Shown here: piece after piece, positions 21,367-64,000 of the stretch
Layout of the letters: the number at the start of each line of letters is the position of its first letter
Position numbering within the stretch: the stretch's first letter is position 1
DNA from: an uncultured Clostridia bacterium
Lineage (GTDB): Bacteria; Acidobacteriota; Aminicenantia; UBA2199
Assembly: GCA_964479735.1 (NCBI GenBank)
Contig: CAYZNT010000009.1
Location: 41,349 to 105,348 of the forward strand
Reading direction: 5' to 3'
Length of the DNA: 64,000 bases
The notes under the pieces: model-generated
What the model was told of the DNA's origin: nothing
Seen by the model: only the letters and a program-made list of their open reading frames with translations
The model's database searches: none
Program-made: the position numbers and the translations under genes

Positions 21367-21470
21367 TTCCCGGTTCGCGCCGGCTTGAAAATTCCCCCGA
21401 ATTTGTGTCTAATGGCTTCGCCTATCCCGGTGACGAGCCGGGGACCGGAGAAACGCGGATGGAGGCCAGC

Positions 21471-45705: not shown

Positions 45706-46803
45706 ATGGTCCGAATGGCCACGAGAGATTTTTCCCGGCTCATCTCGGACAACGAACGCTGGCTCATGCGCCGGGTGCTGGAGTACGCCCGCGCCCACGG
45801 CTATACCCGCTACACGTCGACCCTCGAGGAGGCCTGGCGCGTCTCCATCGCCGGCTTGAACGAGCGCCTTCTGGCTGCGTGGGAGAGCGACCCGCGACCG
45901 CGGGAGCTCGGCCCGGACGAGGACTACACCCGCGACCCGGCCGCCGCCTTCGGCATCCTCGAGGCGCAGCGACACCGCTCGCGCGGCATCACCCTGCCGA
46001 TGTTCCTGGGATTGATGAAGTACTACCGTCAGGCCTACGTCGACCTGGTCGAAGAGATGGGCGAGCCGCTCCGGCGGGCCGAATGGCGCCGGTTCGTCGA
46101 CCGCTTCTTCGACCGCGTTGAACTGGGGTTCATCTCGGAGTGGGGCGCCTGCCGGGACGGCGACCGGCTGGCCGAGCTGCAGGCGCAGAACCGCTCCATG
46201 ACCAACGAGAAGAACAAGTACCTGACCATCTTCGAGAGCCTCTCCAAGCCGGTCTTCCTGCTGAACGAAGCCCACCTGGTCGAAAACGCCAACCACGCGG
46301 CCGTCTCGCTCTTCCTGCCCGGCAGCTCCCCCGGGGCCGTCTACTACCGCGAGCGTCCGCTGCAGGAGTCCCTGCCCTGGCTCTTCCCCGAGTTCGCCGC
46401 CTTCGCCTCCGGTGACCATGTGGAGCTTTCGTTCGAAAAGCGCCTGGAATGCCGCGAGGGAGGCCGCGATTTCCAGGTCCGCCTGCGGCGCATGCTCGAC
46501 GTCTCGGGGAAGTTCACCGGCACCACCGTGATCCTCACCGACATCACCGAGCTGCACCAGGCCTGGGAGCAGGTGAACCAGCTCACCGGACTGCTGCCCA
46601 TCTGCGCCAACTGCAAGAAGATCCGCGACGACCAGGGCTACTGGCAGCAGGTGGAAACCTACATCGCCGACCGTTCCCAGGCCGATTTCACCCACGGCAT
46701 CTGCCCCGAGTGCATGGAGACCCTCTACCCGGGGGCAAGCGAGCAGATCAAGCGCCGGAAGAGGAACGCCAGCCAGACGACTCCACGGCGGGATGGCGAC
46801 TAG
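45706..46803 (+). CDS. Sensor-like protein paralog B: helical N-terminal domain, PAS-like domain, same C-terminal Cys4 motif domain
   Basis: 365 aa. The C-terminus is LTGLLPICANCKKIRDDQGYWQQVETYIADRSQADFTHGICPECMETLYPG. The 3' about 150 bp of DNA is about 90% identical to that of paralog A. Confidence 0.65.
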   Translation: MVRMATRDFSRLISDNERWLMRRVLEYARAHGYTRYTSTLEEAWRVSIAGLNERLLAAWESDPRPRELGPDEDYTRDPAAAFGILEAQRHRSRGITLPMFLGLMKYYRQAYVDLVEEMGEPLRRAEWRRFVDRFFDRVELGFISEWGACRDGDRLAELQAQNRSMTNEKNKYLTIFESLSKPVFLLNEAHLVENANHAAVSLFLPGSSPGAVYYRERPLQESLPWLFPEFAAFASGDHVELSFEKRLECREGGRDFQVRLRRMLDVSGKFTGTTVILTDITELHQAWEQVNQLTGLLPICANCKKIRDDQGYWQQVETYIADRSQADFTHGICPECMETLYPGASEQIKRRKRNASQTTPRRDGD

Positions 46804-49376: not shown

Positions 49377-49415
49377 CTTAACCCGGAATTAACCGTCTTT
49401 TCATCCCTCGTTAAC
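49377..49415 (+). promoter_or_regulatory. Phased (C/A/G)TTAAC direct repeats at 49378, 49389 and 49411 (11 and 22 bp apart): candidate Pho-box array upstream of porin-pstSCAB-phoU
   Basis: cTTAACccggaaTTAACcgtcttttcatccctcgTTAACcc. Confidence 0.45.
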
Positions 49416-49473
49416 CCATCGCGCGCATCATGGGGCCTGCCGGCAAACGGCGAATTCCTACAAGGAGAAATGG

Positions 49474-50493
49474 ATGAAAAAGACGATTCTCTTCGTGCTG
49501 GTCGCAGCGGCCCTGATGGCGGTATTCGCCTCTCCGCTGAAGGCCGGTGTCTCGGCCTACGCGTTCGGCGACTACTACTTCGTGCTGAAGCAGCACAACC
49601 CGGCGCTGGAGGACCTCAACGGCTTCTGGCTGCGCCGCATCTACATCACCTACGACGCCGACATCTCCGACAAGCTGAAGGCGCGCGCCCGGCTCGAGAT
49701 GCACAGCGACGCCAAGTTCGGCTCCTCGCAGCTGTCCATCACCCCGTTCGTCAAGGACGCCTACATCGCCTACCAGTTCGCGCCGCTGCACAAGCTGCAG
49801 CTCGGCATCCAGGAGTCCCTCACCTGGGCCAACGTCGAGAAGTTCTACGGCTACCGCCACCTCGAGAAGACGGCCTTCGACCTCTACAAGGTGCGCTCCT
49901 CCCGCGACTTCGGCGTCTCCCTGGGCGGGTCGCTGGACAAGGCCAAGACGTTCAACTACACGGTGCTGTTCGGCAACTACTCTTCCTATCGCCAGGAGAC
50001 GGACAAGTACAAGCAGGTGGCCTTCCGCTTCACCGTCAACCCGAGCGCCCAACTGATGCTCGAGGCCTCGGCGGATTTCGCCACCGTGTCGGCGGTCAAG
50101 AAAACCTCGCTGTTCCAGGGCTTCGCCGGCTACCAGGGCGACTGGGGCCGCATCGGCCTCAACTACGGCCAGGAAAAGGTGCAGGAAGACGGCAAGGCCG
50201 ATGTCGATTTCGGCGTCTTCTCCACCTTCGCCGTGGTCAAGCTCAACAAGAAATTCGAGGCCGTGGCCCGCTACGACCTGACCACCAAGCCGCAGCCCTA
50301 CGGCCAGTCCGACTTCATCGTCATCGAGAAGGGGTACAAGACCAACCTGTTCATCCTCGGCCTGGGCTGGAACGTGCACCCCAAGTTCCAGATCATGCCC
50401 AACCTGAAAATGGTCACCTACCAGGCCAACGACCTCGGCCTCAAGCCCGACGGCGACACCTACTTCAACGTGACCTTCTACTATCAGTTCTGA
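49474..50493 (+). CDS. Outer-membrane phosphate-selective porin (OprO/OprP-like)
   Basis: Signal peptide, beta-barrel-like sequence, C-terminal ...YYQF. It lies immediately upstream of pstS. AAGGAG RBS is present. Confidence 0.7.
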   Translation: MKKTILFVLVAAALMAVFASPLKAGVSAYAFGDYYFVLKQHNPALEDLNGFWLRRIYITYDADISDKLKARARLEMHSDAKFGSSQLSITPFVKDAYIAYQFAPLHKLQLGIQESLTWANVEKFYGYRHLEKTAFDLYKVRSSRDFGVSLGGSLDKAKTFNYTVLFGNYSSYRQETDKYKQVAFRFTVNPSAQLMLEASADFATVSAVKKTSLFQGFAGYQGDWGRIGLNYGQEKVQEDGKADVDFGVFSTFAVVKLNKKFEAVARYDLTTKPQPYGQSDFIVIEKGYKTNLFILGLGWNVHPKFQIMPNLKMVTYQANDLGLKPDGDTYFNVTFYYQF

Positions 50494-50507: not shown

Positions 50508-51329
50508 ATGAAACTCATGCGCATCCTTTCGATGGTCCTGCTGGCCGGCGGCCTCCTGACCGCCGCCGCCCCGGAGAAGATCGTGGTCGACGGCTCCACC
50601 ACCGTGGGCCCCATCGCCAAAGCCTTCGCCGAGCACTACATGAAGCTGAATCCGGGAGTCAACATCACCGTGTCGGAGTCCGGTTCCGGCAACGGGGCCA
50701 AATCGCTGATCAACAAGACCTGCCAGGTGGCCACCATGTCGCGGCTGCTGAAGCAGAACGAGTACGAGGCGGCCGTGCACTCCGAGATCCTCCCCGTGGT
50801 GCACACCGTGGCCCTGGACGGCATCGCCATGGTCGTCCATCCCGGCAACCCCGTCGCCAAGCTGAGCCTGGCCGAGGTGAAGGCCATCTACCTCGGCAAG
50901 ATCCGCAACTGGAGCCAGCTGGGCGGCCCCAACGCGGCCATCGTCATCATTTCCCGCGACACCAACTCCGGCACCTACGAAACCTTCGAGGGCAAGGTGA
51001 TGAAGGGCGAGAAGATCGCCAAGAACTGCGAGTACGTCGGTTCCAACGGCGCCATCCGCCAGCGCGTGCAGAGCACCCCGGCGGCCATCGGGTACATCGG
51101 CATCGGCTTCATTGACAACACCGTCAAGGCGCTGGCGGTCGACAACGTCGTGCCGACCGTGGACACGGTCAAGAATGGCTCCTATCCCATCGCCCGCCCC
51201 CTCTACATGGTCACCAACGACTATCCCAAGATGGGTTCCCACCTCTACCGCTTCGTCAACCTCTACCTCACCAAGAAAGGCCACGCGATGATCGAGGAGA
51301 TCGGCTTCATCCCGGTCACCTCCTACTGA
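50508..51329 (+). CDS. pstS: Phosphate ABC transporter substrate-binding protein PstS (periplasmic, copy 1)
   Basis: Signal peptide, VDGSTTVGP, SRDTNSGTY, 273 aa. Confidence 0.9.
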   Translation: MKLMRILSMVLLAGGLLTAAAPEKIVVDGSTTVGPIAKAFAEHYMKLNPGVNITVSESGSGNGAKSLINKTCQVATMSRLLKQNEYEAAVHSEILPVVHTVALDGIAMVVHPGNPVAKLSLAEVKAIYLGKIRNWSQLGGPNAAIVIISRDTNSGTYETFEGKVMKGEKIAKNCEYVGSNGAIRQRVQSTPAAIGYIGIGFIDNTVKALAVDNVVPTVDTVKNGSYPIARPLYMVTNDYPKMGSHLYRFVNLYLTKKGHAMIEEIGFIPVTSY

Positions 51330-51344: not shown

Positions 51345-52487
51345 GTGAGCGACCACGCCAGCAACCTGATCCTGAGCCGGGGGGCCAGCCGCCTGCGGCG
51401 GCTGGCCTCGCTGGCCGCCCGCGGCTTCCTGCTGGCCGTGACCGCCGCCTCCATGGTGGCGGTGCTGCTGATCATCGTCTACATCGCCCGCGACGCCATC
51501 CCCTTCTTCAAGCTGCGCGGGGTGGGCGAGTTCCTCGGCCGCAACGCCTGGTATCCCTCCGGGCACCCCGCCGAATTCGGGGCGCTGGCCATCTTCGCCG
51601 GCAGCGCCATCGTCACCCTGGGGGCCATGGCGGTGGCCGTGCCGCTGGGCATCGCCGCCGCCCTCTGCCTGAGCGACGTCCTGCCCTTCTCCGTGCGCCA
51701 GGTGGTCAAGCCGGTCGTCGAAACCCTGGCCGCCCTGCCCTCGGTGGCCTACGGCTTCTTCGCCCTGGTCGTCTTCGCCCCGTTGCTGCAGAACCACGGC
51801 GGACGGGTGTTGTCCCTGATGCTGTGGCTGGCCGGGCTCCCGCTCGGCCTGCTGCTGATCTACGTGTTGTCGGGGCTGTCGGCGCGCGGAGTGCGCGAGG
51901 ACGTGGCCCCGGCGGTCAAGTGGACGATGGCCGCCGTGCTGACGGCCGCCTTGCTGCGCGGCCTGGCGGTGCTGGGCGGGCGCCTCGACAGCCTGGTCAT
52001 CGCCTCGGGCGCCAACGCCTTCAACGTGTCGGTCATCCTGGGCGTCATGGCCCTGCCGACCATCGTCTCCGTATCGGAGGACGCCCTGCAGGCGGCCGGC
52101 CGCGAGCTGCGGGAGGGATCCTATGCGCTGGGCGCCACCCGGGCCGAGACCCTCTTCCGGGTCGTCATTCCGGCCGCTTCCAGCGGCATCGTCGCCGCCG
52201 TTATCCTGGGGGTCATGCGCGCCGTGGGCGAGACCATGGTGGTGTGGATGGCCTCGGGCAACGCCGCCCAGCTGCCCCAGCCCTGGTACAACCTGTTCAG
52301 CCCGGTGCGCACCCTGACCGCCACCATCGCCGGCGACATGGGAGAGGCCGACCAGGTGACCGGGTCGGCCCGCTACCACGTGCTGTTCGCCATGGCCCTG
52401 CTGCTGCTGCTGATCTCGCTGGCGGCCAACCTGGCCTCGGAATGGATCGTGCGCCGGCAGCGCCGGCGGCTCTCGGGACGGAGCTGA
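51345..52487 (+). CDS. pstC: Phosphate ABC transporter permease PstC (copy 1)
   Basis: Multi-TM protein with the EAA-like loop (LGATRAETLFRVVIPAA), 380 aa. Probable GTG start. Confidence 0.88.
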   Translation: MSDHASNLILSRGASRLRRLASLAARGFLLAVTAASMVAVLLIIVYIARDAIPFFKLRGVGEFLGRNAWYPSGHPAEFGALAIFAGSAIVTLGAMAVAVPLGIAAALCLSDVLPFSVRQVVKPVVETLAALPSVAYGFFALVVFAPLLQNHGGRVLSLMLWLAGLPLGLLLIYVLSGLSARGVREDVAPAVKWTMAAVLTAALLRGLAVLGGRLDSLVIASGANAFNVSVILGVMALPTIVSVSEDALQAAGRELREGSYALGATRAETLFRVVIPAASSGIVAAVILGVMRAVGETMVVWMASGNAAQLPQPWYNLFSPVRTLTATIAGDMGEADQVTGSARYHVLFAMALLLLLISLAANLASEWIVRRQRRRLSGRS

Positions 52488-52488
52488 C

Positions 52489-53835
52489 ATGGACCTGAAG
52501 ACCCGCCACTCCCTGGATCGCTCGCTGACCGGGGTCTCGGTGCTGGCCATCGTCCTGATGGCCCTGTCGCTGCTGGTGCTGCTGGGGCCGATCGTCGTCC
52601 GCGGCGCCCGCGCCTTCGTGTTCCGGGCCACGGTCGAGCACCGCCGGCTGATGGCCGAGCAGTTCGACCGCGGCGACCGCGCCGATCTGGCCGCCGAGGC
52701 GGCGATCGCGCTCCGGGCGCGCCAGCCGGTCTACGACATGCTGCAGCGGTTCGATGCCCAGTTGGACGAGATGGAGGGCTCCCGCCGCACCGCCCTGCGC
52801 CGCGAGTTCCGCGATGTGAAGGACGGGCTGCGCGCCCTGCTTGGTCCGTTGCCCGGCGACGACCCCCCGGTGCTGCTGCGCCAGCAGTACGGCCAGACCC
52901 GCTGGGACCGCGCCCGGGTGAAGCTCGGCCAGCTGCTCTTCGTCGAGCGCTGGGACTATTCCGACCGCAGCCGCATGGGCCGCAAGGTGCTGGAGCCCCG
53001 CCACCGGCTGTTCGCCGGCACCGCCCTCGAGCCGCTCTTCCCCCACCTGGAGAAGCACCTGGCGGAGATGCTCCGACCGCGGCTGACTTTCTACTGGCGC
53101 TTCATCAGCGACGTCTCTCGCGACGCCCACTTCTTCGGCGGCATCGGCCCGGAGGTGCTGGGCACCTTCTACCTGGCCCTGGGAGCGATGATCTTCGCCA
53201 TCCCCTTCGGGGTCATCGCCGCCATCTACCTCAGCGAATTCGCCGGCAGCGGCCGGCTGGTCTCCCTGCTGCGCGTCTTCGTCTCCACCCTGGCCGGGGT
53301 GCCGAGCATCGTCTTCGGGCTGTTCGGGCTGGCCTTCTTCATCCACTCCCTGCGCGTTTCGCCCTCCAAGAGCGTCCTGGCCGGCTCCATCACCCTGGCC
53401 CTGCTGGTCTTGCCGACCATCATCCGCGCGGCGGAGGAGGCCATCAAGGCCGTGCCCCAGACCTATCGCGAGGCGGCACTGAGCCTGGGCGCCTCCCCGC
53501 TGCGCATGGTGCTGACGGTGCTGCTGCCGGCGGCGCTGCCGGGCATTTTGACCGGGGTGATCATCTCCCTGGGCCGGGCCGCCGGCGAGACGGCGCCGAT
53601 CATCTTCACCGCCGCGGTCTCCGTGGGCAACCCGCTGCGGCTGTGGGAAACGCTTTCGCAGCCGACCCCGGCGCTGTCCTGGAACATCTACAACCTGGCC
53701 ACCGAGCACGAGGCCCTCGACGAGATCCGCCACGTGCAGTTCGGAATGGTGCTGACCCTGGTGCTGCTGGTGCTGCTCCTCAACCTGGCGGCCATCCTGA
53801 TCCGCGCCCGGCTATCCAGAAAAATGAGAGGCTGA
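52489..53835 (+). CDS. pstA: Phosphate ABC transporter permease PstA (copy 1), with an about 165-aa extracytoplasmic insertion after TM1
   Basis: 448 aa versus about 290 for canonical PstA. The C-terminal 280 aa align with PstA ([29 protein letters not shown]). Confidence 0.85.
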
Positions 53836-53837
53836 CG

Positions 53838-54659
<822 letters not shown>

Positions 54660-54670
54660 GGAGGCACCCC

Positions 54671-55330
54671 ATGGTCCTGCACCTGCACCGGGAGATCGAG
54701 AAACTGAAGAAGCAGATCGCGCTGCTGGCCGGCATGGTCGAAAAGCGCGTGGCCGACGCCGTGCGGGCCGCCGAGACCGATGACTTTTGCCTGGCCGAAC
54801 GCGTCCGGGAGGGAGACGCCGACATCGACCGAACCGAGGTGGAGGTGGAGGAGGAGTGCCTCAAGGTGCTGGCCCTGCACCAGCCGGTGGCCATCGACCT
54901 GCGCTTCATCGTCGCCGTGCTCAAGATCAACGGCGACCTGGAGCGCATCGGCGACGAGGCGGTCAACATCGCCGGCCGCGCCCTGCGCATCCACGACTTC
55001 CCGCGGCCGGAGTGCCGGCTCGAACTGGCCCCCCTGGCCGCGCGCGTTCAGCAGATGCTGAAGGACAGCCTCGACGCCCTGGTCAACATGGACGCCTCCC
55101 GCGCCCACATCGTGCGCCAGGCCGACGACGACGTCGACGAACTGGTGCGGCGACAGTTCGAGCGGGTGAAGGCCAGCATGCAGGTGCATCCCGACCAGGT
55201 CGACCCGCTGGTCGAGTATCTGCGCATCTTCCGCTACCTCGAGCGCATCGCGGACCACGCCACCAACATCGCCGAGGACGTCCTTTACATGGTCGAGGGC
55301 GAGATCGTGCGCCACAAGGAAGAGGCCTAA
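54671..55330 (+). CDS. phoU: Phosphate signalling complex protein PhoU (copy 1)
   Basis: 219 aa with two PhoU repeats (E(x)xxD motifs). Confidence 0.9.
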   Translation: MVLHLHREIEKLKKQIALLAGMVEKRVADAVRAAETDDFCLAERVREGDADIDRTEVEVEEECLKVLALHQPVAIDLRFIVAVLKINGDLERIGDEAVNIAGRALRIHDFPRPECRLELAPLAARVQQMLKDSLDALVNMDASRAHIVRQADDDVDELVRRQFERVKASMQVHPDQVDPLVEYLRIFRYLERIADHATNIAEDVLYMVEGEIVRHKEEA

Positions 55331-55477: not shown

Positions 55478-55532
55478 GTTAACCCCGTATTAACAGTCCG
55501 CACAACGAAAATTAACCGGCGCAGCCTATGAT
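55478..55532 (+). promoter_or_regulatory. Phased TTAAC repeats (55479, 55491, 55512) occupying the -35 position, plus a TATGAT -10 (55527-55532) that ends 6 nt before the ATG at 55539: candidate PhoB-type activated, leaderless promoter
   Basis: ggTTAACcccgtaTTAACagtccgcacaacgaaaaTTAACcggcgcagccTATGATgccggcATG. Confidence 0.45.
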
Positions 55533-55538
55533 GCCGGC

Positions 55539-56729
55539 ATGAGCCTGCATGCCATCCCCATCGCCTACGTGGCTGTCCTCAGTCTTTCGCTGCTGGTGCT
55601 GGGCGCATACACCGGGCTGACCGCGGCCTTTCGCCGCGGCCGCCGGGTACGTCTGCCGCTGAACCAGCAGTCCTACCCGCGTGTCTCCATACTCAAGCCG
55701 CTGCGCGGGGTGGACGACGACCTGGAATCCAACCTGGAGTCCCTCTTCCGCCTGGACTATCCCGATTACGAAATCCTGTTCGCCGTCGACGCCCCGGACT
55801 GCGCCGAGGCGGTCACGGCGCGAACGGTGGGCGGCCGGCACCCCGGCGTCTCCTGCCGCATCGCGGTCACCGGCCACGACTCCGACCGCAATCCGAAGAT
55901 CCACAAGCTGGAGGCGCTGGAGTCACGGGCGAGCGGTGAATTCTTCTGGATCAGCGACGCCAACGTCCGGGTGGCGCCGGACACCCTGAAACGGCTGGTG
56001 GCCGAGTGCCTGAGCCACGGCGCCAAGATCGTTTTCTCGCCCATCCGCGCGACCGGCAGCCGCACCCTGGGGGCGGTCATCGAGAACGCCTACATCAATT
56101 TTTTCATGTCCGGCAACGTCCTGCTGGCATGGACCCTGCTGCGCCAGCAGATCAGCATCGGCAAGTCGATCCTGCTCGAGCGCCGGGCCCTGGAGCGGTT
56201 CGGCGGCTTTGCCTACTTCCGCGACCACCTGGCGGAGGATTTCGTCATGAGCGAGTCGTTCGAGTCCAGCCGCTTCCGCGTATCCAGCAATTTCACCTGG
56301 GTGACCACCGTCAACCGGCGCACCTCCGTGCGCGGCTTCTACCAGCGCCTGGCACGCTGGGCCGTGCTGCGCTTCCGCCTGAAGCCGGCCGTGTACCTGC
56401 TGGAGGTGCTGATCAACCCGTTGGCGCTGGCGATGCCGGCGCCGCTGCTGTGGGGCCGGACCGGCATGCATCTGCTGCTGGGCGCCTTCCTGATCCGGAC
56501 GACGGTCGAGTACGTCAACTTTCTGCTTCTCAACAGCGAGGACCGGCGCCGGATCTGGATCCACCTGGCCTTCCCCGCGGCCATGGTCCTGCAGGATCTC
56601 GTGCTGCTGGCCGTCTACCTGACCCCCTTTTTCCGGCGCACGGTGAACTGGCGGGGCGGCCGAATCACCGTCGGTCGGCACACCCTGATCGCCAACGCCC
56701 AGGACAGCCTGCTCTGCGATGGCGCCTGA
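55539..56729 (+). CDS. GT2/GT21-family glycosyltransferase (ceramide glucosyltransferase-like; Pgt-like processive glycolipid synthase candidate)
   Basis: N-terminal TM, ILKPLRGVDDDLESNLESLFRLDYPDYEILFAVD, DxD-type motifs, the C-terminal QRLARW ((Q/R)xxRW) motif, and multiple C-terminal TM helices. Confidence 0.7.
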   Translation: MSLHAIPIAYVAVLSLSLLVLGAYTGLTAAFRRGRRVRLPLNQQSYPRVSILKPLRGVDDDLESNLESLFRLDYPDYEILFAVDAPDCAEAVTARTVGGRHPGVSCRIAVTGHDSDRNPKIHKLEALESRASGEFFWISDANVRVAPDTLKRLVAECLSHGAKIVFSPIRATGSRTLGAVIENAYINFFMSGNVLLAWTLLRQQISIGKSILLERRALERFGGFAYFRDHLAEDFVMSESFESSRFRVSSNFTWVTTVNRRTSVRGFYQRLARWAVLRFRLKPAVYLLEVLINPLALAMPAPLLWGRTGMHLLLGAFLIRTTVEYVNFLLLNSEDRRRIWIHLAFPAAMVLQDLVLLAVYLTPFFRRTVNWRGGRITVGRHTLIANAQDSLLCDGA

Positions 56730-58095
56730 GAACCGCGTTCCGGCCGGCGACCGCCGCGAGCGCCCGGGCTCGGCCTGGGTGGTTTCCCTGCTGATGGGGC
56801 TCGGCCACCAGAGGGCCGCCTACCCGCTGCGCGATTCCGCCGTGGGCGGGGTGCTGGTCTACGGCTCGCGGCGCACCACCCCCCCGCAGGAGTACCGGTT
56901 GTGGCGGAGGATCCGCCGGCTCTACTACATCTCGTCGCGGGCCGGGCGCATCCCGCTGGTGGGGAAGTACCTCCTGGCGGTGCTGCTCGCGCTGGAGCAC
57001 ATCCGGCCCTATTACCCGCGGCGGGACCAGGCCCGCCCCAACCGGGCCGCGCGCACCCTCGACTGGATGATCCGCCGCCGCGGCCTTTGCGAGGGCCTGG
57101 TCCAGCGGGTCGCCCAACGACCGTTGCCGGTGGTGCACACCTTCTATGCCACCGCCATCGCCCTCGATCGCGCGAACCTCGCCGGGGTGGTGAACTACCT
57201 GCTGATCTGCGACGCCGATTTCAACCGCGTCTGGGTGCCCCTCCATCCCGAGCGAAGCCGCCTGCGCTACCTCGCCCCCTGCACCCAGGTGGGCCTTCGC
57301 CTGCGCTCCTACGGGGTTCCCGCCGAGAATGTCTTCATGACCGGTTTTCCGCTGCCGAAGGAGAACATCGGCGACGAGCGGCGGCTGGAGATCCTGCGCG
57401 CCGACCTCTTCGAGCGGCTGCTGCGCCTCGACCCGCGGCGCAAGTTCTTCGCCTACCACCGCCATTCCGTCCAGCACTGGCTGGGGGGCGCCAGCGTGCC
57501 CCCGTCTGGGCCTGACCGGTTCACCGTGATGTTCGCCGTCGGCGGCGCGGGCGCCCAGGCGGAGATGGTCGAAGGCATCCTGGCCAGCCTCCGGACCCGC
57601 ATCCTGGCCGGCCGGGTCCGCCTGCTGCTGTCGGCCGGAATCCAGCGGCGCGTGTTCGAGCGGATGATGCGGGCGCTGCACGACCAGGGCCTCCAGGAGC
57701 AGCTGGGACAAGGCGTCGACATCCTTTTCGACACCGAGGTCGACGGCTACCTCGACAAGTTCAACCGGGCCCTGCGAAAAACCGACGTTTTGTGGACCAA
57801 GCCCAGCGAGCTCTCGTTCTACTGCGGCCTGGGCATCCCGATCCTGCTGGCACCATCCATCGGCACCCACGAGGAGCTGAACAAGCGCTGGCTGCAGGAG
57901 ATCCACGCCGGGATCAAGCCGCCCGGCCCGGTGGAATGCTGCCACGAGTGGCTCTTCGACCTGCGCGACAACGGGCGCCTGGCGGAGGCGGCCTGGGACG
58001 GATTCCTCAAGGCGCGCAAGCTCGGCACCTACCGCATCGCCGCCCTGCTCCGCGGCGAGCCCCTGCCGGACAGCATGTCGCCGCTGGAGCAGTGA
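56719..58095 (+). CDS. MGDG-synthase/UgtP-like glycosyltransferase (GT28-like) candidate
   Basis: N-terminal LLMGLGHQRAAYPL (the GxGH motif of the MGDG_synth domain) and a C-terminal GT-B-like region. Overlaps the upstream GT by 11 nt. Confidence 0.5.
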   Translation: MAPENRVPAGDRRERPGSAWVVSLLMGLGHQRAAYPLRDSAVGGVLVYGSRRTTPPQEYRLWRRIRRLYYISSRAGRIPLVGKYLLAVLLALEHIRPYYPRRDQARPNRAARTLDWMIRRRGLCEGLVQRVAQRPLPVVHTFYATAIALDRANLAGVVNYLLICDADFNRVWVPLHPERSRLRYLAPCTQVGLRLRSYGVPAENVFMTGFPLPKENIGDERRLEILRADLFERLLRLDPRRKFFAYHRHSVQHWLGGASVPPSGPDRFTVMFAVGGAGAQAEMVEGILASLRTRILAGRVRLLLSAGIQRRVFERMMRALHDQGLQEQLGQGVDILFDTEVDGYLDKFNRALRKTDVLWTKPSELSFYCGLGIPILLAPSIGTHEELNKRWLQEIHAGIKPPGPVECCHEWLFDLRDNGRLAEAAWDGFLKARKLGTYRIAALLRGEPLPDSMSPLEQ

Positions 58096-58205: not shown

Positions 58206-58865
58206 TCAGGCCTCTTCCGTGTGGCGCACGATCTCGCCCTCGATCATGTAGAGAACGTCCTCGGCGATGTTGGTGGCGTGGTCGGCGATGCGCTCGAGGT
58301 AGCGGAAGACGCGCATGTATTCGATGAGGATGTCGACCTGGTCGGGATGCTCCCGGATGCCGCTTTTGACGGCCTCGAAGCGGGCGTGGGCGAGCTCGTC
58401 GATCTCGTCGTCGGCCTGGCGCACCGCGTGGGCGCGGGCGGCGTCCAGGTTGACCAGGGCGTCGAGGCTCCCCTTGAGCATGCGCTGCACGCGCTCGGCC
58501 AGGGGGGCGAGGTCGATGGGGCTGGCGGGGGGGGGATAGGAGCGGATGCGCAGGGCGCGGCCGGCGATGTTGACCGCCTCGTCGCCGATGCGCTCCAGGT
58601 CGCCGTTGATCTTGAGCACGGCGACGATGAAGCGCAGGTCGATGGCCACCGGCTGGTGCAGGGCCAGCACCTTGAGGCACTCCTCCTCCACGTCCACCTC
58701 GGCCTGGTCGATGTCGCTGTCTCCCAGGCGCACGCGCTGGGCCAGCTCGCCGTCGCGCGTCTCGATGGCCCGCACGGAGTCGGCCACGCGGTGCTCGACC
58801 ATGCCGGCCAGCAGCACGATCTGCTTTTTCAACTTGTCGATTTCGCGGTGCAGGTGCAGGACCAT
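58206..58865 (-). CDS. phoU: PhoU (copy 2), about 85% identical in protein to copy 1 and in inverted orientation
   Basis: MVLHLHREIDKLKKQIVLLAGMVE..., 219 aa. GAGGAGG RBS is present. Confidence 0.9.
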   Translation of the reverse strand: MVLHLHREIDKLKKQIVLLAGMVEHRVADSVRAIETRDGELAQRVRLGDSDIDQAEVDVEEECLKVLALHQPVAIDLRFIVAVLKINGDLERIGDEAVNIAGRALRIRSYPPPASPIDLAPLAERVQRMLKGSLDALVNLDAARAHAVRQADDEIDELAHARFEAVKSGIREHPDQVDILIEYMRVFRYLERIADHATNIAEDVLYMIEGEIVRHTEEA

Positions 58866-58876
58866 GGGGGGCCTCC

Positions 58877-59635
58877 TCAGCCGAAGCGGCCGCTGATGTA
58901 GTTTTCGGTCAGTTGCTGCCGGGGGTGGGTGAAGATCTCGCCCGTCTCCCCGAACTCGACCAGCCGGCCCAGGTACATGAACCCGGTGTGGTCGGACGCG
59001 CGCGCCGCCTGCTGCATGTTGTGGGTGACGATGACGATGGTGTATTCCCTCTTGAGCTCCTGCATCAGCTCCTCGATGTGGGCCGTGGCGATCGGGTCCA
59101 GGGTGGAGCAGGGCTCGTCCAGGAGCAGGATCCGGGGCTTCAGCGGAAGCAGCCGGGCGATGCACAGCCGCTGCTGCTGCTCCAGCGACAGCTTGAGCGC
59201 CGACTCGCGCAGCCGGTCCTTCAGGTCGTCCCACAGCAGCACGCCGCGCAGCGAGCGTTCGACGATCTCGTCGTATTCCCGGCGCGCGGCCAGCTGGTGG
59301 ATCTCCAGCCCGAAGATGATGTTGTCCTGCACCGACAGCGGGAAGGGGTTGGGGCGCTGGAAGACCATGCCCACCCGCTCGCGGAGCTCCAGCAGGTCGG
59401 TGTCCGGGGCCAGGATGTCCACTCCGTCCATGAGCACGCGGCCGCTCGTGCGCACCCCGTCGATCAGGTCGTTCATGCGGTTGAAGACCCGGAGCAGCGT
59501 GCTCTTGCCGCAGCCGCTGGGGCCGATCAGCGCCGTCACCCGGCGGGTGGGAATGCGCAGCTCGACGTCGATGAGGGCCTGGAAATTCCCGTAGAACAGG
59601 TTGAGCGCCTGGGTTTCGATGGCGATGTCGTCCAT
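58877..59635 (-). CDS. pstB: PstB paralog 2a: intact Walker A/B, Q- and H-loops, but degenerate ABC signature (LSLEQ instead of LSGGQ)
   Basis: [46 protein letters not shown]. Confidence 0.88.
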   Translation of the reverse strand: MDDIAIETQALNLFYGNFQALIDVELRIPTRRVTALIGPSGCGKSTLLRVFNRMNDLIDGVRTSGRVLMDGVDILAPDTDLLELRERVGMVFQRPNPFPLSVQDNIIFGLEIHQLAARREYDEIVERSLRGVLLWDDLKDRLRESALKLSLEQQQRLCIARLLPLKPRILLLDEPCSTLDPIATAHIEELMQELKREYTIVIVTHNMQQAARASDHTGFMYLGRLVEFGETGEIFTHPRQQLTENYISGRFG

Positions 59636-59636
59636 G

Positions 59637-60404
59637 TCAGCCGAACTTCCCGGTGATGTAGTCGGAGGTGCGCGGGTCGCGGGGGGCGGTGAACATTTTC
59701 CCCGTCTGGTCCACCTCCACCATTTCGCCCATCAGGAAAAACGCCGTGCGGTCGCCGGTGCGCGCGGCCTGGGCCACGTGGTTGGTCACCAGCACGATGG
59801 TGTAGCGCCGCTTCAGCTCCAGCAGCGTCTCCTCGATGCGAGCCGTCGAGATCGGGTCGAGACCGGAGGTGGGCTCGTCGAACAGCAGCACCTCGGGTTC
59901 GCCGGCCAGGATGCGCGCCATGCACAACCGCTGCTGCTGGCCGCCGGAGAGGTTCATCGCCGGCGTGTGCAGGCGGTCCTTCACCTCCTCCCACAGGAAG
60001 GCGTCGCGCAGGGAGCGCTCCACCGCCTCGTCCAGCCGGCGGCGGTCGCGGACTCCCTGCATGCGCAGCCCGTAGACGATGTTCTCGAAGATGGAGATGG
60101 GCAGCGGAAAGGGGAGGGCGAAGACGATGCCGACGCGGCGCCGCAGCGCTTCGACCTCCAGGCTGCGGATGTCGGCTCCGTCCAGCTCGATGCGTCCTTC
60201 CTGGCGAAACGCGGGGTGCAGATCGTTGAGCCGGTTGAGGGCGTTCAGGAAGGAGGACTTGCCGGAGTTGGCCGGGCCGATGACGGTGAAGACCTCGTTG
60301 GCGCGGATCTCCAGCTCCAGGCCGCGCAGGGCGATGGTGTCGCCGAAGCGCAGCGTCAGGCCGCGGACGGCGATTTTGGGGGGGGTGGGGGGGCCGGCTA
60401 CCAT
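59637..60404 (-). CDS. PstB paralog 2b: intact signature LSGGQQQRL and Walker B, but Q-loop Gln replaced (VFALP) and H-loop shifted (VTNHV)
   Basis: [46 protein letters not shown]. Confidence 0.85.
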   Translation of the reverse strand: MVAGPPTPPKIAVRGLTLRFGDTIALRGLELEIRANEVFTVIGPANSGKSSFLNALNRLNDLHPAFRQEGRIELDGADIRSLEVEALRRRVGIVFALPFPLPISIFENIVYGLRMQGVRDRRRLDEAVERSLRDAFLWEEVKDRLHTPAMNLSGGQQQRLCMARILAGEPEVLLFDEPTSGLDPISTARIEETLLELKRRYTIVLVTNHVAQAARTGDRTAFFLMGEMVEVDQTGKMFTAPRDPRTSDYITGKFG

Positions 60405-61243
60405 TTTTTTCTCCGCCGGAAGCGGGAGCGCACGAGGATGGCGGCCAGGTTCAGCAGCAGCACCAGCGCCAGCAGGACCAGCGCCGTTCCGTAGCGGACG
60501 TCTTCGGCAATGCCGGGCACCTGGGTGGAGATGACGTAGAGATGGTAGGGCAGGGCCATCGTCTGGTCGAAGAGGGTTTGCGGCAGGCGCGGCAGGTAGA
60601 AGGCGGCGACGGTGAACAGGATCGGCGCGGTCTCCCCGGCGGCGCGGCCGAGGCCCAGGATGGTGCCGGTCAGGATCCCCGGCAGGGCGTGCGGCAGCAC
60701 CGAGTGGCGGACGGTCTGCCAGCGGCTGGCGCCCAGCGACAGCGAGACGAGCCGGAACGACTGCGGCACGCTCTCCAGCGCCTCGCGCGTCGAGGTGATG
60801 ATCACCGGCAGGATCATGATGCCCAGGGTCAGCGAGCCGGCCAGGATCGACGCCCCGAAGCCGAAGAAGGTGACGAAGATGCCCAGGCCGAAGAGGCCGT
60901 ATACCACCGAGGGCACGCCGGCCAGGTTGACGATGGCCAGTTTCACCAGCCGGGACAACGCCGAGTCGCGGGAGTACTCCACCAGGTAGATGGCGGCCAG
61001 CACCCCGATCGGCACGGCGAAGAGCACCGCCCCGCTCACCAGGTAGAGCGTACCCAGGATGGCCGGAAGGATGCCGCCGGCGGTCATGCCGGCGCGGGGC
61101 ATGGTGAAGAGGAAGGACAAGCTGATGGCGCTGGCGCCCTTGGCCACGATGATGCCCAGGATGACCAGCACCGGCAGCACCACCAGCAGGGTGGCCAGGA
61201 AGAGGATGGAGAAGGCGATGGCCTGGGTCGTGCGCGGGCTCAT
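60398..61243 (-). CDS. pstA: Phosphate ABC transporter permease PstA (copy 2, canonical length)
   Basis: About 281 aa, [40 protein letters not shown]. Confidence 0.88.
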   Translation of the reverse strand: MSPRTTQAIAFSILFLATLLVVLPVLVILGIIVAKGASAISLSFLFTMPRAGMTAGGILPAILGTLYLVSGAVLFAVPIGVLAAIYLVEYSRDSALSRLVKLAIVNLAGVPSVVYGLFGLGIFVTFFGFGASILAGSLTLGIMILPVIITSTREALESVPQSFRLVSLSLGASRWQTVRHSVLPHALPGILTGTILGLGRAAGETAPILFTVAAFYLPRLPQTLFDQTMALPYHLYVISTQVPGIAEDVRYGTALVLLALVLLLNLAAILVRSRFRRRKKW

Positions 61244-61245
61244 GG

Positions 61246-62124
61246 TCACCTGCGGGAGCGGTGCAGGTAGAGGTCGGCCACGCCGTTGACCAGGAAAGTG
61301 ATGACGAACAGCACGATGCCGATGGCGAACAGGGCGGCGTAGTGGGGGCCGCCCTGCACCGACTCGCCCATCTCGGCGGCGATGGTGGCGGTCAGGGTGC
61401 GCACCGGCTGCAGGATGCTGCGCGGCATCAGGGCGGCATTGCCGGTGACCATCATCACCGCCATGGTCTCGCCGATCACCCGGCCGATGCCCAGCATCAC
61501 CGCCGCCACCATGCCGGGGCGGGCGGCGCGGGCCACAATGCGCCAGGTGGTCTGCCACCGGGTGGCGCCCATGGCCACGGCGGCCTCGCGGTACTGGCGG
61601 GGGACGGCGGTGATGGCGTCCTCGGCGATGGAGACGATGGTCGGCATGGCCATGAAGGCCAGGGTGATCGAGCCGGTGAGGGCGGTGAGGCCGGTGGGCA
61701 GCTGGAAGAGTTCCCGGATCCACGGCCCCAGGGTGATCATGCCGATGAAGCCGATGACCACGGAGGGGATCGCCGCCAGCAGCTCGATGCCCGCCTTGAG
61801 CGTCTCCTTGAGCCTCGGCGGGGCGATCTCGGCGATGAACAGGGCGGCGGCGATGCCGATGGGAACCGACAGGGCGGCCGCCCCCAGGGTGACCAGCAGC
61901 GAGCCGACGATGAGCGGCAGGATGCCGAACCGGGGCGGGTGGGAAATGGGATACCAGCTGGTGCCGAAGAGGAAGTCACCCACCCCCTCGTGGCCGAAGA
62001 GGGCCAGCCCCTCGCGCAACAGGAAGAGGAAGATGAGCAGCACGAAGACGATGGAGAAGACGCCGGAGAGGAGAATGGCCTTCTCGACCAGCCACTCCCT
62101 CGGTTTGCGCGGCAGCAGCCCCAT
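61246..62124 (-). CDS. pstC: Phosphate ABC transporter permease PstC (copy 2)
   Basis: 292 aa, AMGATRWQTTWRIVARAARPG. Confidence 0.88.
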   Translation of the reverse strand: MGLLPRKPREWLVEKAILLSGVFSIVFVLLIFLFLLREGLALFGHEGVGDFLFGTSWYPISHPPRFGILPLIVGSLLVTLGAAALSVPIGIAAALFIAEIAPPRLKETLKAGIELLAAIPSVVIGFIGMITLGPWIRELFQLPTGLTALTGSITLAFMAMPTIVSIAEDAITAVPRQYREAAVAMGATRWQTTWRIVARAARPGMVAAVMLGIGRVIGETMAVMMVTGNAALMPRSILQPVRTLTATIAAEMGESVQGGPHYAALFAIGIVLFVITFLVNGVADLYLHRSRR

Positions 62125-62137
62125 CGCTCCGCGGCCC

Positions 62138-63010
62138 CTACCGGCGCACGGGCACGAAATCGAGCTCGCCCACCAGCTTCTGCCCCTCGGGGGAGAGGAC
62201 GAAATCGAGGAACTGCGCCGTCAGGCCGTGAGGCTGGCCCTTGGATACCATCAGCAGCGGCCGGGAGATCGGGTAGCTCTTGTTGATGACGTTTTCCAGG
62301 GTGGGGGCGACGTGGGGCGCGCCGGGCTCCAGGGAGACGTGCAGGGCTTTTTGCCGGGGGCTGATGTACCCCATTCCGTAGTAGCCGATCGCCCCGGGGT
62401 TTTGCGCCACCTCGTCGGCGATGGCCTGGGAACTGGGCAGCATCAGGGCGCCGGGAGCGAACTCCTCCTTGCCGTCGGCCCGGCCATGGCGCAGCACGTG
62501 CTCCTTGAAATAGAGGTGGGTGCCGGAGTTGACCTCGCGCGACAAGACCACGATCTGCCGGTCGGCGCCGCCGACGTCCTTCCAGTTGGTGATGGCGCCG
62601 GAGAAGATCTGCGCCAGCTGGCCCATGGTCAGCTCCGACACGGGGTTGGCGGGGTGGACCACCACGGCCAGGCCGTCGAGCGCCACCTCCAGCTGCTTCG
62701 GCTCGATGCCGTTCTTGCGGGCCATGGCGATCTCGTCGGGCTTCATGTCGCGGGACAATTCGGCGATGTCGCAGGACCCGGCGATGAGGGAGGCAATGCC
62801 GGTGCCCGAGCCGCCGCCGGTGACGGCCACCGACAGGTCGGGGTGCTTCTGCATGAAGGCCTCGGCCCACGCCTGGCCCAGGTTGACCATGGTGTCCGAG
62901 CCCTTGATCTGGATCGAGGTGGCGACGTCTCCCCGGCGGCCGCAGCCGGCGGCGGCCAGGGAGGCGGTGGCGAGAAGCACCGCCAGGGTGAACCGTCCGT
63001 TCCTTTTCAT
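62138..63010 (-). CDS. pstS: Phosphate-binding protein PstS (copy 2, lipoprotein form)
   Basis: Lipobox LAAAGCG, IKGSDTMVNLGQAWAE, SREVNSGTH, about 290 aa. Confidence 0.88.
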   Translation of the reverse strand: MKRNGRFTLAVLLATASLAAAGCGRRGDVATSIQIKGSDTMVNLGQAWAEAFMQKHPDLSVAVTGGGSGTGIASLIAGSCDIAELSRDMKPDEIAMARKNGIEPKQLEVALDGLAVVVHPANPVSELTMGQLAQIFSGAITNWKDVGGADRQIVVLSREVNSGTHLYFKEHVLRHGRADGKEEFAPGALMLPSSQAIADEVAQNPGAIGYYGMGYISPRQKALHVSLEPGAPHVAPTLENVINKSYPISRPLLMVSKGQPHGLTAQFLDFVLSPEGQKLVGELDFVPVRR

Positions 63011-63054: not shown

Positions 63055-63114
63055 GTTAACATGTTATTAAAAAAGGGTTAAGGGGGGGTTAAGGCCCGGT
63101 TAAGAAACGGTTAA
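63055..63114 (+). promoter_or_regulatory. Array of six (G/A)TTAA direct repeats at exact 11-bp phasing (63055, 63066, 63077, 63088, 63099, 63110): candidate triple Pho box in the pstS2 / DUF47-pit divergent intergenic region
   Basis: GTTAAcatgttATTAAaaaaggGTTAAggggggGTTAAggcccgGTTAAgaaacgGTTAAt. The array ends 9 bp before the -35. Confidence 0.55.
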
Positions 63115-63122
63115 TTTCCGGG

Positions 63123-63151
63123 TTGACCCGGGAAGGGCTTTCTGGTAAGAT
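63123..63151 (+). promoter_or_regulatory. Sigma70-like promoter (TTGACC, 17 bp spacer, TAAGAT) for DUF47-pit
   Basis: TTGACC at 63123-63128 and TAAGAT at 63146-63151. AGGAGG RBS lies before the ATG at 63200. Confidence 0.5.
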
Positions 63152-63199: not shown

Positions 63200-63844
63200 A
63201 TGTTCAAATTCCTGTTGCCCAAAGAAGAGCAGTTCTTCGAGTTGTTCGACAGGATGGGCGCCAACCTCGTCGAAGGCGTGCAACTGCTCAACCAGATGCT
63301 CGACCCCGGCGCGCCCGCCTGCACGCCCCAGGGCCGAAGCGAGCTGGCCCTGCGGGTGAAGACGATCGAGCACCAGACCGACGGCGTGGCCCACCAGATC
63401 ATCTCCCGGCTGCACAAGACCTTCGTCACCCCCATCGACCGCGAGGACATCTTCCACCTGGTCGGCCGGCTCGACGACGTGCTCGACCTGACCGAGGGCG
63501 CCGCCTCGCGCATCGAGCTCTACCAGCCCAAGGAAGTGCCGCACGAATCGGTGGAGCTGGGCAAGGTGCTGCTGGAGAGCGCCCGCCTGGTGCAGGACAT
63601 GGTCCACCTGCTGAGCGACATGAAGAAATCGGCCCGCATCCTGGAACTGGCGGTGGAGATCAACCGCCTGGAGCACGAGGCCGACCTGCTTCGCCGCGGC
63701 ACCCTGGCGCGGCTTTTCCGGGAGGAAAAGGACGTATTCGAGCTGATCAAGTGGAAGGACATCCAGGAATACATGGAAAAGGCCACCGACCGGTGCGAGG
63801 ACGTGGCCAACATCACCGAGGGCATCGTGCTGGAAAACACCTGA
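63200..63844 (+). CDS. DUF47 family protein (PhoU-like regulator typically paired with Pit; TIGR00153-like)
   Basis: 214 aa helical protein immediately upstream of pit. Confidence 0.8.
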   Translation: MFKFLLPKEEQFFELFDRMGANLVEGVQLLNQMLDPGAPACTPQGRSELALRVKTIEHQTDGVAHQIISRLHKTFVTPIDREDIFHLVGRLDDVLDLTEGAASRIELYQPKEVPHESVELGKVLLESARLVQDMVHLLSDMKKSARILELAVEINRLEHEADLLRRGTLARLFREEKDVFELIKWKDIQEYMEKATDRCEDVANITEGIVLENT

Positions 63845-63854
63845 CGGGGCCGGC

Positions 63855-64000
63855 ATGCTGCTCGTCATTTTCATCATCTTCGTGGCCCTGGCCTTCGACT
63901 TCACCAACGGCATGCACGACGCGGCCAATTCCATCGCCACCATCGTCTCCACCCGGGTGCTGACGCCGCGCCGGGCGGTCATCTGGGCCGCCTTCTTCAA
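63855..64000 (+). CDS. pit: Inorganic phosphate transporter PitA / PHO4 family (partial, N-terminus only)
   Basis: MLLVIFIIFVALAFDFTNGMHDAANSIATIVSTRVL carries the conserved FDFTNG.HD.AN.IAT motif. It runs off the window end. Confidence 0.85.
   Translation, partial: MLLVIFIIFVALAFDFTNGMHDAANSIATIVSTRVLTPRRAVIWAAFF

Follow-up and report, generated by a model that had tools for sequence, protein, structure and literature searches.

A candidate Pho-regulated glycosyltransferase pair, GT21 and DUF6938, between two pst-phoU operons of an Aminicenantes genome

Two adjacent glycosyltransferase (GT) genes are located between two phosphate-uptake operons in a 64,000-nucleotide stretch of DNA, designated here the window, from contig CAYZNT010000009.1 (positions 41,349 to 105,348, forward strand) of an uncultured bacterium of the Aminicenantia (Acidobacteriota). 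The locus raises the question of whether the pair serves to replace phospholipids with phosphorus-free glycolipids when phosphate is scarce, as an initial annotation of the same DNA had proposed. The first gene, open reading frame 1 (ORF1; 55539-56729, + strand), encodes a 396-amino acid integral-membrane lipid glycosyltransferase of family GT21, and the second, ORF2 (56719-58095, + strand), encodes a 458-amino acid protein of Pfam family DUF6938 with a GT-B, GT28-like fold. The evidence presented below indicates that the two genes probably constitute a Pho-regulated, two-step pathway for synthesis of a phosphorus-free glycolipid, with diacylglycerol (DAG) as the most likely acceptor. Predicted Pho control of a lipid-glycosylation pair is the best-supported reading of the locus, because ORF1 is assigned to GT21, the candidate Pho box is common to the pst promoters and conserved between species, and the genes are placed near phosphate genes in three phyla.

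Both reading frames were confirmed at these coordinates, and their codon statistics are normal for a 68% G+C genome (G+C at third codon positions, GC3, of 0.91 for ORF1 and 0.93 for ORF2). The closest relatives of both proteins are encoded by Aminicenantes metagenome-assembled genomes, with 65% identity to ORF2 in the best species representative. The ATG of ORF2 overlaps the stop codon of ORF1 by 11 nt (ATGGCGCCTGA), and ORF1 and ORF2 therefore form one translationally coupled unit. The pair sits on the + strand between phoU1 (54671-55330, + strand; TIGR02135, 204.9 bits against a cutoff of 130) and phoU2 (58206-58865, − strand; NCBIfam), which is convergent on ORF2. Profile matches at NCBIfam cutoffs identified a complete pst-phoU operon on either side, within the last 15 kb of the window, in agreement with the placement given by the initial annotation.

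The spacer between phoU1 and ORF1 is 208 nt long and contains a candidate Pho box (55479-55516, + strand). TTAAC repeats with an 11-nt phase begin at 55479, 55490 and 55512, and the in-phase unit at 55501 is degenerate (CACAA). A candidate −10 hexamer, TATGAT (55527-55532, + strand), follows 10 nt past the last repeat and ends 6 nt before the ORF1 ATG, and the phased repeats previously noted were thus found at the −35 position. Direct repeats of 11 bp that replace the −35 element and lie ~10 bp upstream of the −10 element are the hallmark of PhoB/PhoP-type Pho boxes in E. coli, Bacillus and Streptomyces. In Synechocystis, the validated Pho box is made up of three tandem repeats that share a TTAA core (PMC11126600). 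Because TATGAT is located 6 nt before the ATG and no Shine-Dalgarno sequence precedes this codon, the transcript of the GT operon is possibly leaderless.

Candidate boxes of the same kind precede both pst operons. Upstream of the first, the porin-pst1 operon, the box (49378-49415, + strand) is composed of 11-nt-phased TTAAC, TTAAC, TTCAT and TTAAC units followed after 10 nt by CATCAT, and this repeat-N10-hexamer layout (49378-49431) is common to the GT and pst1 promoters. The box of the pst2 operon (63055-63114, − strand) contains six 11-nt-phased repeats, five of them TTAAC and one TTAAT. The entire 64 kb was searched for TTAAC-N6-TTAAC with at most one mismatch, and the background was estimated from 100 shuffles. 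Nine overlapping matches were obtained, in three places only: upstream of pst1, GT21 and pst2. The chance expectation was 0.05 matches, and none of the 100 shuffles reached nine.

Conservation of the box was assessed in related loci. Relatives of ORF2 were present in 459 species in a scan of one genome per species, from which 80 loci were retrieved; a database clustered at 90% identity contains thousands of DUF6938 relatives. A box was present within 150 nt upstream, on the coding strand, in 25 of the 51 GT21 genes with enough upstream sequence, compared to an expectation of 0.2 (~100-fold enrichment), which rises only to ~1.6 if all background boxes are taken to be intergenic. It was often the sole box in the 21 kb of the locus. 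The motif is kept between species whose proteins are ~50% identical, indicating selection on the intergenic box. TTAAC repeats also precede the porin-pstS operon in several Aminicenantes loci, and in the Fibrobacterota/Chitinispirillia (L014, L022, L024, L027 and L029) the repeat unit is CTAAC upstream of both pstS and GT21. This parallel variant at the pstS and GT21 promoters suggests that the site of the regulator co-evolved across its regulon in the Fibrobacterota.

ORF1 is a true GT21 enzyme, as indicated by Pfam matching, structural alignment, motifs and hydropathy. It matched Glyco_transf_21 (PF13506) with E=3.6e-33 and 114.9 bits against a cutoff of 21.7, over profile positions 1-173 of 174. 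Residues 44-376 are colinear with residues 48-380 of a solved ceramide glucosyltransferase (26qf_A, E=1.6e-34), including the C-terminal membrane region. D60, D84, D140-x-N142, E233-D234 (the AED motif) and R270-x-x-R273-W274 do not vary among 25 homologues, and they line up with their counterparts in the solved enzyme. Hydropathy analysis indicated an N-terminal transmembrane segment (residues 5-23) and C-terminal hydrophobic segments at 281-303, 312-330 and 343-361. The GT21 architecture that had been read from the translation was therefore upheld in each of its parts. ORF1 is ~28% identical to Burkholderia HpnI and equally so to a GT21 homologue of Sinorhizobium fredii, whose gene is preceded at −83 and −72 by a Pho box of the classical rhizobial type (TGTCAT-N5-TGTCAT). 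Because ORF1 is this distant from both, the Aminicenantes GT21 clade appears to be a separate branch of the family.

The similarity to HpnI, the bacteriohopanetetrol glucosamine glycosyltransferase, raises an alternative that the initial annotation had itself named, namely that ORF1 is HpnI-like, glycosylates bacteriohopanetetrol, and acts with ORF2 in the modification of hopanoids. The HpnI model (TIGR03472) is the best NCBIfam match to ORF1 and aligns over its full length (E=8e-54), but the score of 182.8 bits is far under the curated cutoff of 310. Authentic hpnI lies between hpnJ and hpnK, as in the Burkholderia example. When Burkholderia proteins were used as tblastn queries against the window and the 80 related loci, HpnK gave no match, and the matches to HpnJ were limited to weak similarity with radical-SAM proteins of unrelated Bacillota loci. 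Association with a Pho box and pst genes is, moreover, not a known feature of hpn clusters. An HpnI identity for ORF1 was accordingly rejected on its score and on the absence of hpnJ and hpnK from the window and the 80 related loci, and we consider a hopanoid role for the pair highly improbable.

ORF2 was assigned to DUF6938 by its Pfam match and by profile and fold comparison. It scored 56.5 bits against the PF22053 cutoff of 27, and this family was found in 120 of 120 homologues among the matches listed. Those homologues that carry a name are all called 'hypothetical protein'. The initial annotation had likened the second enzyme to monogalactosyldiacylglycerol (MGDG) and digalactosyldiacylglycerol (DGDG) synthases. 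At the level of sequence this likeness was lost, since ORF2 matched neither MGDG_synth (PF06925) nor Glyco_tran_28_C (PF04101) at E<=0.01, and an hhalign comparison of DUF6938 with a canonical GT28 gene from a related locus, L082, was not significant. A canonical MGDG synthase was ruled out on these grounds. Plant DGDG synthases belong to GT4 and are not relevant to ORF2. At the level of fold the likeness was retained. The DUF6938 profile matched the solved processive diacylglycerol glucosyltransferase UgtP (9wde) with E=4e-6 over the C-terminal nucleotide-sugar motif, and the GT-B fold of the family is closest to the GT28 members MGD1, MurG and UgtP. ORF2 differs from plant MGD1, Bacillus UgtP and MurG in that it falls under the Pfam thresholds for GT28, is classed as DUF6938, and contains an insertion of ~80 residues (56-133) made up of basic and aromatic helices. 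ORF2 is thus an uncharacterised GT-B family member, GT28-like in fold, and not an MGDG or DGDG synthase recognisable by sequence.

Several features of ORF2 concern its activity. The N-terminal G-x-G-H motif that had been noted earlier was confirmed as a G27-x-G29-H30 loop, and this loop, a second loop (G275-G276-x-G278-x-Q280) and E364 are invariant in 35 sequences. A conserved N-terminal His is catalytic in MGD1 and MurG. The invariant glycine loops and E364 argue for an active enzyme. No transmembrane segment was found in ORF2 by a hydropathy scan, and the insertion at 56-133 may provide a surface for interaction with the membrane.

The association of the two families recurs across species. 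GT21 lies immediately 5′ of the DUF6938 gene on the same strand in 52 of the 80 loci, including essentially all Aminicenantes, Fibrobacterota/Chitinispirillia and Elusimicrobiota loci with contigs long enough. In addition, one protein cluster (P0242; two contigs, from JGI/IMG and ENA) represents an 837-amino acid fusion in which GT21 forms the N-terminal and DUF6938 the C-terminal part. The fusion could be real or a frameshift artefact, the latter being possible because the GT21 and DUF6938 genes normally overlap.

One locus, in an Ignavibacteriaceae genome (L082:9664-12447), has a different arrangement. No GT21 gene precedes DUF6938 there, and a canonical MGDG_synth/GT28 gene follows DUF6938 after 5 nt. 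Four phased TTAAC/TTAAT repeats and a small ORF of ~32 amino acids precede this pair. The partner position is thus occupied by a different first-step lipid glycosyltransferase, and this single locus therefore suggests that DUF6938 performs the second step.

Some observations at these loci bear on a further alternative, in which the pair is still induced by phosphate limitation and builds a non-lipid glycan, such as an envelope polysaccharide or exopolysaccharide, or a storage or compatible-solute glycoside. The P0242 fusion was named 'cellulose synthase/PNAG synthase-like glycosyltransferase' by one source, and weak GT2 and PgaC matches were seen. A gene encoding a GlgC-like nucleoside diphosphate (NDP)-sugar pyrophosphorylase also lies directly upstream of DUF6938 in two loci, one from the Endomicrobiales (L055:172-1572) and one from an unclassified bacterial metagenome-assembled genome (L065:27-683); this neighbour may hint at the sugar donor. 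However, the alignment of ORF1 with a lipid monoglycosyltransferase is full-length and extends through the C-terminal membrane region, and ORF1 lacks channel-forming or PilZ-type accessory domains. The nearest folds to DUF6938, those of MGD1, MurG and UgtP, are likewise of lipid-acceptor enzymes. We therefore regard a non-lipid product as very unlikely. Other conserved neighbours encode extracytoplasmic function (ECF) sigma and anti-sigma factors, toastrack, YgiQ radical SAM and HAD proteins, which are mostly uninformative on the acceptor lipid.

Genes for phosphate uptake and phosphoester hydrolysis recur near the pair. In 18 loci, drawn from three phyla, pst or phoU genes are found in varied arrangements at a distance of no more than 10 kb from the GT pair, and in seven loci GT21 is immediately preceded by a PiT gene. 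In 16 Aminicenantes loci the pair is accompanied by a gene for a PHP-family metal-dependent phosphoesterase of ~345 amino acids, in a divergent, co-directional or convergent orientation. The gene is divergent in L004, L005, L006, L010, L011, L017, L021, L023 (1726-2763, − strand), L035, L062 and L078 and co-directional in L032 and L033, and it is present further in L028, L008 and L038. Matches to Pfam PHP and PHP_C were weak but were obtained for all 14 members scanned, and the metal-binding His/Asp residues of the HxH, DH and DxH motifs are invariant. The divergent PHP genes carry 11-nt-phased repeats of their own. In a single locus, L070, the DUF6938 and porin-pstS genes are separated by a gene for a calcineurin-like metallophosphoesterase of 351 amino acids (1529-2633) that matched Pfam Metallophos above its threshold; a TTAAC-type box precedes this gene, and its product is a candidate PlcP-like enzyme. 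The porin and PstS of this locus are the most similar to those of the window (61% and 75% identity, respectively). Neither the PHP-family nor the calcineurin-like phosphoesterase is present in the window.

In marine bacteria the phospholipase C PlcP supplies DAG (PMC8231724), and it is a matter of speculation that the PHP-family or L070 phosphoesterase does so in relatives of the window. A more extensive model can be built on this. DUF6938 would be an unrecognised family of lipid glycosyltransferases, GT28-like in structure but not identifiable as GT28 from sequence, that catalyzes the second step after a first-step partner, which would be GT21 in the Aminicenantes, Fibrobacterota and Elusimicrobiota or a canonical MGDG-synthase-type GT28 in the Ignavibacteriaceae, and in many Aminicenantes the Pho-box-linked PHP phosphoesterase, as a phospholipase other than PlcP, would supply the DAG. 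We put this model forward tentatively, as a combination that has some chance of being correct in all its parts but a smaller chance than of failing in one of them. If true, it would describe a new Pho-regulated module for membrane-lipid renovation that is widespread among the uncultured, anaerobic phyla that inhabit sediments and digesters.

The proposed function of the GT operon itself is as follows. Under low phosphate, a response regulator of the PhoB/PhoP type would bind the TTAAC repeats, which are phased at 11 nt and stand in place of the −35 element, and would switch on the GT operon together with both pst transporters. GT21 would then transfer a sugar from a uridine diphosphate (UDP)-sugar to a lipid alcohol of the membrane on its cytoplasmic side, and DAG is the likeliest acceptor, as for the rhizobial enzyme Pgt. 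DUF6938 would subsequently add a further sugar or make a second head group. The resulting phosphorus-free glycolipid would take the place of phospholipid and spare phosphorus.

Several observations weigh against this proposal, and some of them favor an alternative in which the pair is expressed constitutively and its pst-flanked position and TTAAC repeats are coincidental or serve another regulator. In most of the related loci pst genes are absent within 10 kb of the pair, and approximately half of the orthologous GT21 promoters are without a box at the search stringency applied. Because the related loci share ancestry, the nominal P-value of the box enrichment is inflated. Within the window, no significant intrinsic terminator or stable hairpin was found between phoU1 and GT21, so that some read-through is possible; none was found after ORF2 either. 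Bacillota and other distant homologues of DUF6938 (44-47% identity) stand alone, and no obvious phased repeats were seen upstream of these stand-alone genes. A search of the window revealed no DAG-supplying phospholipase C (PlcP) and no other lipid genes. Finally, the identity of ORF1 to any annotated relative is only ~28%, with HpnI at the same distance, and acceptor specificity is therefore not readable from its sequence. Constitutive expression is nevertheless very unlikely in our assessment. The box is confined to three Pho-type promoters in 64 kb, it is strongly enriched upstream of GT21 orthologues, and the change from TTAAC to CTAAC occurred in parallel at the pstS and GT21 promoters of the Fibrobacterota. 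With respect to the glycolipid remodelling initially suggested, predicted Pho control was strengthened by a box that is common to the pst promoters and conserved, and ORF1 is at most a putative Pgt orthologue and DAG a probable acceptor.

Comparison with characterised systems further places the pair. The characterised bacterial GT21 enzyme is the processive Pgt of Agrobacterium and Mesorhizobium, which produces di- and triglycosyl-DAGs under phosphate limitation, prefers DAG over ceramide, and has a predicted Pho box (PMC3972451, PMC8231724). ORF1 resembles Pgt of A. tumefaciens and M. loti as a GT21 membrane enzyme with a candidate Pho box at its promoter, and the role of Pgt in synthesis of phosphorus-free glycolipids (PMC3972451, PMC8231724) is the one proposed here for ORF1. 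The two differ in phylum, ORF1 belonging to the Acidobacteriota/Aminicenantes, in the box, which is TTAAC rather than CTGTCAT, and in organization, in that ORF1 has an obligate partner in a second GT, DUF6938, in contrast to the processive Pgt, which works singly. The PlcP-Agt operon of SAR11, Roseobacter and Sinorhizobium is likewise a Pho-regulated cassette for conversion of phospholipid to glycosyl-DAG (PMC8231724, PMC4796936), the function that we suggest for this operon. Agt, however, is a GT4 enzyme coupled to a metallophosphoesterase-type phospholipase C, whereas the window encodes GT21 and a GT28-like protein, and in place of PlcP, relatives of the window encode a phosphoesterase of the PHP family (16 loci) or of calcineurin-like type (L070) close to the pair.

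A third system, Sgt1/Sgt2 of Caulobacter crescentus, is encoded by adjacent, PhoB-regulated genes whose products glycosylate a lipid sequentially under phosphate starvation (PMC6445935). The window resembles it in having two adjacent, candidate Pho-regulated GTs, a likeness of arrangement. Sgt1/Sgt2 differ in that they use ceramide and are described as restricted to the Caulobacteraceae and Sphingomonadaceae. This comparison introduces the alternative that regulation is as proposed and the acceptor is ceramide or another non-glycerol lipid, which sequential glycosylation would convert to a Pho-induced glycosphingolipid. Apart from the Caulobacter precedent (PMC6445935), this possibility is favored by the closest solved relative of ORF1 being a ceramide glucosyltransferase, by the name 'ceramide glucosyltransferase' that JGI gives to homologues, and by the acceptance of ceramide by Pgt in vitro (PMC3972451). 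It is unlikely when set against two further observations: inspection of the window and of the conserved neighbours revealed no gene for serine palmitoyltransferase or other steps of ceramide synthesis, and the pairing of DUF6938 with a canonical MGDG-synthase-type gene in the Ignavibacteriaceae points to DAG chemistry. DAG is thus retained as the most likely acceptor of the GT21-DUF6938 pathway.

Pho-controlled glycolipid synthesis by a GT21 enzyme was already known. What is new at this locus is the obligate pairing of GT21 with an uncharacterised GT-B family, DUF6938; the lineages concerned, which are uncultured Aminicenantes, Fibrobacterota and Elusimicrobiota; a candidate Pho-box consensus for these lineages; and the differing accessory phosphoesterases. 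Most of the documented cases in which glycolipids replace phospholipids under phosphate stress come from Alphaproteobacteria, SAR11/Roseobacter, cyanobacteria and a few pathogens. The locus would extend this replacement to the Aminicenantes, Fibrobacterota and Elusimicrobiota, all of them anaerobes that are uncultured and abundant in sediments, peat and digesters. A literature search found, in the library covered, no mention of DUF6938 and no papers that combine Aminicenantes with lipid, phosphate or glycosyltransferase, and the pathway proposed here is the first functional hypothesis for DUF6938. The proposed consensus, 11-nt-phased TTAAC repeats (CTAAC in the Fibrobacterota), could be used for mapping Pho regulons in these phyla. 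The proposal also bears on environmental profiles of intact polar lipids, in which glycolipids of unknown origin serve as biomarkers.

The TTAAC-N6-TTAAC box was also observed before other genes in the related loci. These encode a histidine phosphatase (His_Phos_1; L052:19951 and L053:13262), a LysE-type translocator divergent from the PHP gene (L032:7525, L033:1190 and L038:15020) and a DUF4388 protein (L016:8607, L038:12394 and L060:1316), and could also belong to the Pho regulon.

The pst operons that flank the pair are arranged as follows. The first gene of the pst1 operon (49474-50493, + strand) encodes a porin-like protein of 339 amino acids that has no Pfam match, a signal-peptide-like N-terminus and a C-terminus ending in YYQF. 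Homologues precede pstS in L013 and L070, and the product is probably a phosphate-selective outer-membrane porin. It is followed on the + strand by pstS1 (50508-51329; TIGR02136, 274 bits against a cutoff of 207), by pstC1 (51345-52487), pstA1 (52489-53835) and pstB1 (53838-54659), each identified with NCBIfam, and by phoU1. The pst2 operon is encoded on the − strand and comprises pstS2 (62138-63010, NCBIfam), pstC2 (61246-62124), pstA2 (60398-61243) and two tandem pstB genes (58877-60404; NCBIfam) at 58877-59635 and 59637-60404, followed by phoU2. One of the tandem genes scored above the PstB cutoff (362.9 against 343.2 bits) and the other below it (314.7), and the duplication of pstB recurs in several related loci, for example L030, L032, L034 and L037. 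The sole sigma-70-like promoter match between 49 and 64 kb, TTGACC-17-TAAGAT (63123-63151, + strand), is directly adjacent to the pst2 Pho box and faces a DUF47/PhoU-like gene (63200-63844, + strand) and then a PiT phosphate transporter gene that starts at ~63894 and is cut by the end of the window at 64000.

No phoB or phoR gene was identified in the window. The remainder of the window is ordinary chromosome, with infB, nusA, thrS, infC, pheST, rny, xseA, dxs, polA, mutY and genes for large PAS histidine kinases. In two regions, 21400-23650 and 27900-29200, a GC3-based gene caller gave short ORFs only, and G+C by codon position was atypical, with high G+C at second positions (GC2). A 365-amino acid protein encoded at 45706-46803 (+ strand) has no Pfam match and carries a Cys-rich C-terminal motif, LLPICANCKKIRDDQGYWQQVETYIADRSQADFTHGICPECMETLYP, which also occurs at the C-termini of sensory proteins.

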